From Phycisphaerae bacterium (GTDB taxonomy: Bacteria > Planctomycetota > Phycisphaerae > UBA1845 > Fen-1342), in the NCBI GenBank assembly GCA_963675745.2, contig CAXXWX010000006.1:160001-224000 (forward strand): a DNA stretch of 64,000 nucleotides, in the 5' to 3' direction. This document shows positions 27,401 through 30,400 of the stretch, in pieces; within the stretch, counting starts at the first letter, position 1; each line of letters opens with the position of its first letter. Made by a program: the position numbers.

Positions 27401-30400
27401 TCATCGGTCGGACCCAGCCCACCGGTCACGATCAGCACATCTGAGGCTTGCGCCGCGCTGGTCAGTGCTTCGCAAATCGGCAGAAGCTCGTCCGGGACGG
27501 TCACGTGGCGCTCGGCGCGCACGCCCAACGCGGCCAGTCGCGCGGCGATCCAGGCCGAGTTGGTGTCGACGGTCTGCCCGAGCGTCAACTCGGTGCCGAT
27601 TGAGACAATCGAGGCTGTCTGCACGCGCAACTCCCGATTCAACTCCCCGGGGCGAAGTCTATCCGATCTGCGGAACCGGCGAGGAAGAGCAAGGGCGCAT
27701 TTTTCGTGCTAGAATGACCCCCTGTCCGCGGGAAGCCGGGGCCAGTAGCCCAACCGGCAGAGGCACAGGACTTAAAATCCTGCAAGTGCGGGTTCGAGTC
27801 CCGCCTGGCCCAGTTTGGAATGTTTGCGGCGGCGCTGTCATTCGATGACACGAGCGTCGCCCCACAGTCGCGATCGCACCGAGGTTCTTCGATCGCCACA
27901 GGAGATTGTTTATGTCGGATCAGCCGTCACTCGAGCAACGCGTAAGAGCCGTAATCGATGAATTCCGCCCGCTGACTCAATCCCATGGCGGTGACGTCGA
28001 GTTCGTCGAGATGGGCAGCGACAACATCGTCAAGGTACGCCTCCAGGGCGCCTGCCACGGCTGCCCGGGCGCCACGCAGACACTCAAGATGGGGCTCGAA
28101 CAGTACCTGCGCAGCAAGGTCCCCGAAATAGGCAGTGTCGAACAGGTGATGTAGCGGCCTGCGCCTCGCAGGCCGTCGCCGCCAGCCAGGGCTCTTTATG
28201 CTCGGCGTCCGGCGAGGCGGCGGCCGTTACGCCTTCGCCGAACCGCAACGCCAAGCGCGACATTCCTCCGGTGGCGACGGACCTAAATTCCGTACAGCGG
28301 GCCGAACTTGGCGCGCAGATACGCCATGAACGGCTTGGCCGTAAGACCCTCGCCCGTGACGACCTCGGCCAACTCGTTGGCGCGGTAGCGCATGCCGTGC
28401 TTGTGGATGTTGTCGCGCAGCCACTCGCGCAGCGGCCCCAACTCGCCGCGGCGGATCTGGTCATCCAGATCGGGCAGGGCCTGCTTTGCAGCCGCAAAGA
28501 ACTGCGCTGCGTACAAATTCCCCAACTGATAGGTCGGGAAATAGCCGAAGATGCCCATGCTCCAGTGGATGTCCTGCAAGCACCCCTGGGCGTTGTCCGG
28601 CGGCGTGATGCCGACGTATTCCTCGAACAGACTGTTCCACTTGTCCGGAACGTCGCGGGTGGCGAGTTTGCCCGCGATCATCTGCCGCTCGATGTTGAAA
28701 CGCAGCATGATGTGCAGGCCATACGTAACCTCGTCGGCCTCGACGCGGATCAAGCTTGGGCGGACGTTGTTGATCGCAAAATGGAACGCGGGCAACGGCA
28801 CATCCGCCATGACCGGGAAAGTGCGCTGGAAGTCCGCGTAGAAATGTTCCCAGAAAGGCAGGCTGCGACCGACCTGGTTCTCCCAGAGCCGTGATTGGGA
28901 TTCGTGAATGCCCAGCGAAACACTGCTGCACATCGGCGTCCCGGTGTGCTGCGGATCGAGCCCCTGCTCATAGAGCCCGTGTCCGGCCTCGTGCATGGTG
29001 CCGAACAGCGCCATGGGGAAGTAATTCCGGTCATAGCGCGTTGTCAGGCGGACGTCGTTGGGTGTCGCCCCCGAACAGAAGGGATGCACGGCCACATCCA
29101 GACGACCCGCCTCTTTGTCGAAAGTCATCGCGTCGAGCACGCGACGGCCGAACTCCTGCTGTTTGTCCACCGGGCAGTCGCGTTTCAGAATCTCCAGATC
29201 AGGCTGGCGGGGTGCGTCCTTGATCGCCGCGACCAACGGCACCAGATCCTCTTTCAAATCATCGAAGACGGCCTGTACGTCCGCGGCTCGCGCCCCCGGC
29301 TCATACTCATCCATCAGCGCGTCGTACGGCTCCGTGTCCCAGCCGATCTTGTCGGCGACCTCGCGTTTCAGATCGAGCAGCTTGTCGAGGTGCGGTGCGA
29401 ACTGGTCGAAGTCAGAATCGGCCCGGGCCTTGGCCCAGGCGGCCTGAGCGAGAGAGGTGGCCTTGGCGATGTCCTTCACGAGCTGAGTAGGCAGCTTCAC
29501 GTCGCGGTCATAGATGCGGCGGGTCTCGCGCAGATTGGTCCGCACCACGAAGTCGTCGTCCTCTTCCTGTTCGGCTTTGGCCAACAGGCTGCCAAGCTCG
29601 GGGCTGGTCTGCTTGTCATGGGCTATGCCGGCAATCAACGCGAGCTGGTTCGCCCGGTTGGCGGAGGCTTTCTTGGGCATGTAGGTTTCCTGATCCCAGC
29701 CCAGCAAAGCGCCAACCTGCTGCACGGTGGCGACGTCCTTGACCAGTCTGATCAGTTGTTCGTAGGTTTCACTTGGCACGGGGGGTCCTCCACTCGCCTG
29801 ATCCTGATGAACCGGAACCGCCATCTTATCAATCCGGTGAAGCCGGGTACAGGCATGCCGCGGCGGGGGTCACTCATCGTTGCGGGGTGCAAAACTGCAG
29901 ACCAGCCCGCCGGCCGGCGCGCGAGTGATCCGCATGTGGCCGCGCAGCAGCGCGCCGGCCAGCTCGGCGTCGAGGGTGTCGGTGGCATAATGCTCCACTG
30001 ACGCGCGGCCACTATCCAACCGGCGCACATGTCCGCGGTCGCCGCTCAATTCGCCCTCGAAATCAAGGTACACCCGGCGGTGGTCGTGGATGCGCTCGGC
30101 GGGGATCGGCTCGGAGGTCGTCAGCGGATTATGCGCCAGACGCCATGTCGCCAGCAGCGGCAGCGCCGGCACCTCGAACAGAACATCCCAGTGGATGCCA
30201 GGGTCCGGCACCGAAGATCCGGTCGTATCGTGTTCGAGGACAACGAACATGCGGCCTTCCAGTTCGCCGGGCGCATTGTCCGGGCGGGCCCGCCGCCGTC
30301 AGTGGGAAATGGGCTCGGCCTCGCCGAAGAGTCTGTCGATCTCGCGTGACAGCTCGATGGCCTGGCCCGCGTTATCGCGCACGTGCAGAACGCCCGCGAA

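Follow-up and report, generated by a model that had tools for sequence, protein, structure and literature searches.

The tRNA-Leu(UAA) found in this Phycisphaerae genome is a conserved, probably essential tRNA of type I shape, which lacks the long variable arm. Its gene lies at 27739..27812 of the window, the whole stretch of 64,000 nucleotides that was analysed. Sequence comparison makes it fairly likely that the gene encodes a housekeeping armless tRNA-Leu(UAA), which was converted from the lineage's own long-armed gene and is charged by the single leucyl-tRNA synthetase (LeuRS). Its housekeeping task in the family would be to read UUA as leucine, and the same LeuRS would also serve four long-armed isoacceptors. 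On a wider scale, tRNA-Leu(UAA) may be a two-state structure that switched repeatedly and in place from type II to type I, at least twice in the class and probably in Actinomycetota too, each time with the same core (A9, C12-G23, C13-G21, A46), while the leucine-specific domain of LeuRS was not seen to change along with it. The chances for this wider reading are about even.

Identity and structure of the tRNA gene

The tRNA gene, its parts and its neighbours are as follows.

26329..27642, minus strand: cinA-like gene (MoCF_biosynth, CinA_KH, CinA), divergent and upstream; context, beside the tRNA in many family loci
27707..27715, plus strand: extended -10-like element, predicted promoter, 29 nt upstream of the tRNA, read from the sequence
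27739..27812, plus strand: tRNA-Leu(UAA) gene of type I shape (ARAGORN and Rfam RF00005, 64.9 bits)
27746..27765, plus strand: rewired core and D-arm, with U8, A9, C12-G23, C13, A14, A15, A20a, G21, A22 and A26
27773..27775, plus strand: anticodon UAA, followed by A37 and A38 (ARAGORN)
27783..27787, plus strand: 5-nt variable loop (ARAGORN drawing), with A46, G47 and U48 invariant in 39 of 39 distinct family genes
27912..28154, plus strand: NifU-like gene, downstream; context, recurs downstream in several family loci

The tRNA is 74 nt long with discriminator A73, and its CCA end is not encoded. It is the sole tRNA gene that ARAGORN calls in the 64-kb window, and no second tRNA-Leu(UAA) copy was found in the genome with a loose UAA pattern. 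The other four intron-less tRNA-Leu of the genome measure 84 nt (CAA), 82 nt (UAG), 86 nt (GAG) and 85 nt (CAG). These results bear out the first-pass annotation, which had described the only UUA reader as a 74-nt tRNA with a short variable loop, next to four tRNA-Leu of 82-86 nt.

The variable stem-loop of more than 10 nt that marks canonical type II tRNAs is absent, and the leucine anticodon sits on a cloverleaf whose variable loop measures about 5 nt. U8-A14 and the Leu-type D-loop are kept in the 39 distinct family genes that were parsed. The type I tRNA coexists with type II isoacceptors, and one LeuRS was found in the genome, which is 5.2 Mb in size and 91% complete. No gaps lie over the tRNA gene in contigs from two runs of one sample, which are not independent of the assembly. 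Compensatory changes were found in 7 of 21 consensus pairs of the tRNA (RNAalifold, 13 family genes).

Some ARAGORN calls elsewhere in the genome are unlike tRNAs, namely an identical 84-nt 'Thr(CGT)' at C2:118514-118597 and C22:12188-12271 and a 98-nt 'Ala' at C3:23269-23366. The 84-nt stretches resemble the 5' part of a riboswitch, with a likeness to cobalamin riboswitches. Three weak PF07596 hits, which 14 control genomes lack, agree with a host in Planctomycetota, a phylum to which this protein family is linked.

Rewiring of the tRNA core

Crystal structures of type II tRNA-Leu contain U8-A14-A20a, G/A13-G21-A22 and G9-G12-C23, with A20a in place of A21, and that of type I tRNA-Phe contains C13-G22-G46 and A9-U12-A23, as described in the accessible text of PMC12360207. 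All 39 distinct family genes carry A9, C12-G23, C13, A15, G21 and A26 and a variable loop that ends in A46-G47-U48. All 39 long-armed genes of the order carry G9, G12-C23 and G or A13, and mostly U26. In wider sets of genes, which were not selected by pattern on these positions and include four rows obtained by BLAST with this gene, C12-G23, C13 and G21 are present in 78 of 78 armless genes, 75 of them also with A9. Among the long-armed genes of these sets, C13 occurs in 0 of 77 and G12-C23 in 76. This tally overstates the number of events because kin are not independent.

Compared with canonical type II tRNA-Leu (structures of B. subtilis UAA and E. coli UAG), the family tRNA shares A14, A15-U48, A20a, G21, A22 and A73 but has no variable stem, and with A9, C12, G23 and C13 the triples G9-G12-C23 and G/A13-G21-A22 cannot form as they are described in the accessible part of PMC12360207. 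By comparison with the crystal structures, C13 would form a pair with G21, and A46 would complete the type I triple. An RNAalifold model of 13 family genes independently shows the C13-G21 pair, with A22 bulged. In the proposed conversion, the stem of the variable arm would have been lost and the core rebuilt. The type II triples would have been replaced by C12-G23 with A9 and by C13-G21 taking A46, which would reproduce the geometry that type I tRNAs normally build from C13-G22-G46. The bases that mark the tRNA as leucine-specific (U8-A14, A15-U48, A20a and A73) would have been retained.

The earlier description of the change as a loss of the arm is right in direction, since the long form prevails in sister families (159 of 160) and in the phylum sample (86 of 92). 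The change is more than a deletion, as positions 9, 12, 13, 23 and mostly 26 changed too.

A long-armed actinobacterial tRNA-Leu(CAA), which starts near position 1484 on the matching strand of L354 (genome G684), has A9 and C12-G23 but G13 and U21. It possibly represents a half-way state between the two architectures. Several long-armed UAA genes of family f16 (L530-L557) were parsed with an unusual C1-G72 pair, which an offset in parsing may explain.

Distribution of the short form

The family and its sister families were searched with a pattern that accepts either arm length. The short tRNA-Leu(UAA) was found in 68 of 68 matching family genomes, with one match each (72 searched); four of the 72 gave no UAA tRNA match, the loose pattern included. 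In the ten sister families of the order, 160 of 179 genomes match, of which 159 are long and one is short (G166, with the short-only pattern). The claim that the short form is family-wide is thus confirmed, and its absence from sister families holds with the exception of G166. In a phylum sample of 151 searched genomes, 6 of 92 matching genomes have the short form and 86 the long form.

Within the class, the short form also occurs outside the family, in G166 and in three families of other orders. The short-only pattern matches 9 of 12, 5 of 43 and 1 of 5 genomes in these three families and 15 of 256 genomes of other orders overall. In family f16, 8 of 60 matching genomes are short (71 searched), and none has both forms. 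Both f16 tallies, that of the class scan and the 8 of 60, include the unpublished genome G492, without which the second becomes 8 of 59.

Outside the phylum, a UAA match was obtained in 25 of 71 genomes of Knoellia's class, and 21 of these 25 are short. At least 114 loci in GTDB, mostly actinobacterial, have the short form with a 6-nt loop, found with a pattern covering 6-nt loops only. A viral scan returned the short UAA form at at least 120 loci, selected by pattern, and named actinobacterial and phage records carry the same short form. The first-pass annotation had called this a shape that bacterial tRNA-Leu normally lacks. That view does not hold, given type I tRNA-Leu in Streptomyces and short-loop forms in mycobacterial clusters, as reported in the accessible parts of PMC6614811 and PMC6582537, and the 21 of 25 genomes in Knoellia's class.

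Across the family, loss of the arm is limited to the UAA isoacceptor; three genomes also have small clusters with additional armless CAG, CAA or GAG genes. Small clusters of mostly armless tRNA-Leu (CAG, CAA, GAG, UAA) lie at L500 383-725 (minus strand), L501 3515-3669 (plus), L499 7003-7793 (minus) and L505 3550-3912 (plus), in genomes G070, G063, G071 and G527. These clusters are probably mobile. The armless UAA gene of G166 (L194 7622-7694) is solitary, no long-armed copy was matched there, and the LeuRS of this genome falls among those of its own family. Either a recent, independent switch or a transfer may account for this armless gene. In a test of contamination from the family studied here, the contig of the gene was not closer to the present genome than other G166 contigs were (median identity 43% versus 51-53%), although the test separates groups poorly.

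Origin of the armless gene

The armless gene would have arisen in the family ancestor from the lineage's own long-armed tRNA-Leu(UAA), and such an origin in place is likely from the kinship of the stems. When 32 stem positions are compared, the closest match of 36 of the 39 family genes is one of the order's 39 long-armed genes, ahead of all 224 other armless genes. The mean stem distance of family genes is 7.4 to the long-armed genes of the order and 13-15 to other armless groups. The family consensus differs from the long-arm consensus of the order at 3 positions, and 0 of the 224 other armless genes come within 9. The acceptor stem gives the same picture in two groups, with mean nearest distances for the family of 1.6 to the long form of the order versus 5.2-5.4 to f16 genes, and for armless f16 genes of 1.0 to long f16 genes versus 5.2-5.3 (6 armless and 26 long genes). 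In f16, ispD lies just upstream of the tRNA at 4 of 6 armless and 8 of 26 long-armed loci (1.5-kb flanks). The stem kinship and the shared f16 slot point to repeated conversion in place. No common neighbourhood was found among the long-armed loci of the sister families, and synteny is therefore uninformative on the origin in the family itself.

A xenologous replacement is a possible but less probable history. The source would be a phage or a mobile tRNA cluster, from which the ancestor would have acquired an armless UAA gene, either whole or by recombination into its native gene, and the long copy would have been lost. The function would then be the same and the history different, with a shared core that was inherited and not convergent. 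The viral loci mentioned above share the core, as do armless CAG, CAA, GAG and UAA genes of the small clusters, some of them in family genomes. Short cases are also scattered at the tips (G166, G580, G608, G609 and G527), and in G527 the sole UAA match sits inside an armless cluster. An AU test on 42 non-core columns leaves a single origin of all armless genes unrejected (p-AU 0.378). In the tree on these columns, which is largely unresolved, 8 of 12 viral armless genes share a branch with family and long-armed genes, and two viral armless genes are 6 stem positions away from a family gene. Coordinated changes would, moreover, be easier to import than to evolve repeatedly.

Against an import, two separate lineages each have armless genes whose stems fit their native long-armed gene, and both forms occupy one slot in f16. 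The changes affect both halves of the gene, a pattern not expected from a single integration into the 3' half, and the CAA gene of L354 is a possible intermediate. A gene from a phage or mobile cluster would be expected in a tRNA cluster or element, in patchy distribution and as an extra copy; here it is solitary amid housekeeping genes, is the only tRNA of the window, and is short in 68 of 72 family genomes. Conversion in place thus remains the preferred origin. An additional idea, that the armless genes of other orders are actinobacterial imports, was dropped, since the long-armed genes of f16 itself have the same acceptor stems and slot.

Leucyl-tRNA synthetase

In a quick tree of 39 rows without outgroup, nine family LeuRS form one clade (SH-aLRT 100) beside the long-arm family f2 (84), and the LeuRS of G166 nests within f2. 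The family LeuRS was inherited vertically, and the enzyme was therefore not imported together with the tRNA. The leucine-specific domain is 41-60 aa long and variable among the nine family enzymes, resembling that of the long-arm families f2 and f9, and the C-terminal domain is intact in the family. Ten family-specific columns, from an alignment with seven family enzymes, gave no clear pointer to co-evolution.

Leu-Gly in the R730-L731-L732-G733 region is necessary in a Streptomyces LeuRS chimera, according to the accessible part of PMC6614811. In the genome studied here, the domain ends differently, with ESVE as the residues before KMSKS. Leu/Ile-Gly just before KMSKS, the equivalent of L732/G733, occurs in one of nine family enzymes (as IG) and in 7 of 7 enzymes of the long-arm family f6, and two actinomycete LeuRS have FG there. 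The Leu-Gly determinant does not track the armless state. Because it is absent in 8 of 9 family enzymes, the determinant described in the accessible part of PMC6614811 does not explain the acceptance of the tRNA here.

As further observations, only 4 of 9 family LeuRS (L247-L254, L276) retain the Asn of their C-terminal motif of the VQxNGK type. The LeuRS of G326 (L285) has one in-frame TAG and its match continues in a second piece. This may be a split gene, or the result of a frameshift or an assembly error.

Function and UUA codons

TTA is the rarest sense codon of the genome, with 1336 of 137,894 leucine codons, and is present in 1038 of 3645 genes (called by our own script). It was found in genes with rpoB, recA, valS and ileS motifs, and the rpoB-motif gene has two TTA codons. 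At 271 TTA sites in paralog alignments, the facing residue is Leu in 48% and Phe, the next, in 10%; other leucine codons face Leu in 58-62%, above the value for TTA. Since Leu is the residue most often opposite TTA and the codon is spread over 1038 of 3645 genes, UUA most likely stands for leucine and the tRNA is probably needed. The tRNA-Leu(UAA) would be expressed and leucylated, and it very probably works as a leucine tRNA.

A recoding of UUA, or a non-functional relic in place of a leucine tRNA, is very improbable. The missing long arm and the somewhat low share of Leu opposite TTA would fit it; however, Leu is by far the commonest residue there, the Leu-type D-loop, A15-U48 and A73 are kept, and 68 genomes have conserved the gene, with compensatory changes in its stems.

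A regulatory tRNA like bldA, in which a weaker armless form throttles UUA-containing genes, is equally hard to credit. The rarity of TTA would agree with it, and so would the finding that the LeuRS of S. coelicolor charges its 5-nt-loop tRNA-Leu(CAA) with less than half the efficiency of its type II UAA tRNA, given in the accessible part of PMC6614811. In contrast to S. coelicolor, which has just 145 UUA codons according to that text, UUA is not confined here to a few dispensable genes and reaches the motif genes named above. The TTA share of leucine codons near the tRNA also shows no clear difference, with a median of 0.69% in the family versus 0.77% in sister families (p 0.24, 20 loci each). 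A housekeeping role thus remains the preferred reading.

With regard to expression, 30 of 43 family loci have a -10-like hexamer at a distance of 10-60 nt before the tRNA, compared with 7.5% of random windows. A strict sigma-70 promoter scan upstream of the tRNA found nothing.

Genomic neighbourhood

In addition to the cinA-like and NifU-like genes, an M32 peptidase gene is a neighbour of the tRNA. In many family members, a GcvT/YgfZ-like gene (for example L011 405-1454, plus strand) separates cinA from the tRNA, and NifU often follows downstream. The GcvT/YgfZ-like gene is absent here between positions 27642 and 27739 of the window, and a family query did not find such a neighbour in five sister genomes. 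cinA was matched in 4 of the 5 sister genomes, far from the tRNA.

A GC-rich palindromic repeat lies just after the NifU-like gene (28154-28175, plus strand), with an exact copy at 55490-55511 (minus strand). It has 64 exact copies in the genome, 138 within two mismatches, and very high depth. It resembles an intergenic repeat of the REP type.

Comparison with known systems

The nearest described case is the type I tRNA-Leu(CAA) of Streptomyces (PMC6614811, accessible part). It is alike in its 5-nt loop with A46 and G47, in U8-A14 and in having four type II isoacceptors under one LeuRS. It differs in its phylum, its anticodon CAA and its C48, where the family has U48, and the UAA tRNA of Streptomyces (bldA) is long-armed, whereas here the UAA tRNA is the armless one. 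The same part of that paper reports that E. coli LeuRS was unable to charge the Streptomyces type I tRNA, and that a LeuRS from one species without such a tRNA can charge it. The type I form is proposed there as the ancient state, but it looks derived in the present family.

The armless UAA tRNAs of Actinomycetota are alike in D-arm, core and a loop of 5-6 nt, but have other acceptor and anticodon stems, with a consensus that lies 9-12 of 32 positions away. The short-loop tRNA-Leu genes known from phages and mobile clusters, such as those of cyanophage P-RSM6 and mycobacteriophage Faith1, share the core and loop. A short-loop tRNA-Leu(TAG) is present in a mycobacterial tRNA cluster (PMC6582537), and mobile tRNA arrays (L-arrays) are known from several phyla including Planctomycetes (PMC8421152). 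Unlike these phage and cluster genes, the present one stands alone on the chromosome, is fixed in the family and serves as the sole UAA reader, not as an additional copy. No statement on arm length was seen in the accessible part of the L-array paper (PMC8421152), and no bacterial cases in that of the tRNAscan-SE 2.0 preprint. In the openly licensed literature, no paper was found on this family, on planctomycetes or on repeated arm loss with a fixed core.

The armless tRNA-Leu as a molecule was therefore already known. What is added here is that the switch apparently took place repeatedly and in place, with one fixed core, while LeuRS shows no visible change in its leucine-specific domain.

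Implications

The family and its relatives provide a natural experiment, in which close relatives have the long and the short form of one tRNA, with near-identical stems and closely related synthetases. The comparison isolates the few core bases that are required to change when the arm is lost, and the role of the long arm of tRNA-Leu becomes testable. The Leu-Gly determinant of Streptomyces does not follow armless tRNAs elsewhere. The results also argue against type I tRNA-Leu as an ancient relic, at least in this lineage. If tRNA-Leu(UAA) is indeed a two-state structure, this LeuRS subfamily would have a latent capacity to charge armless forms, and the core set would describe in general how a tRNA-Leu can do without its arm.
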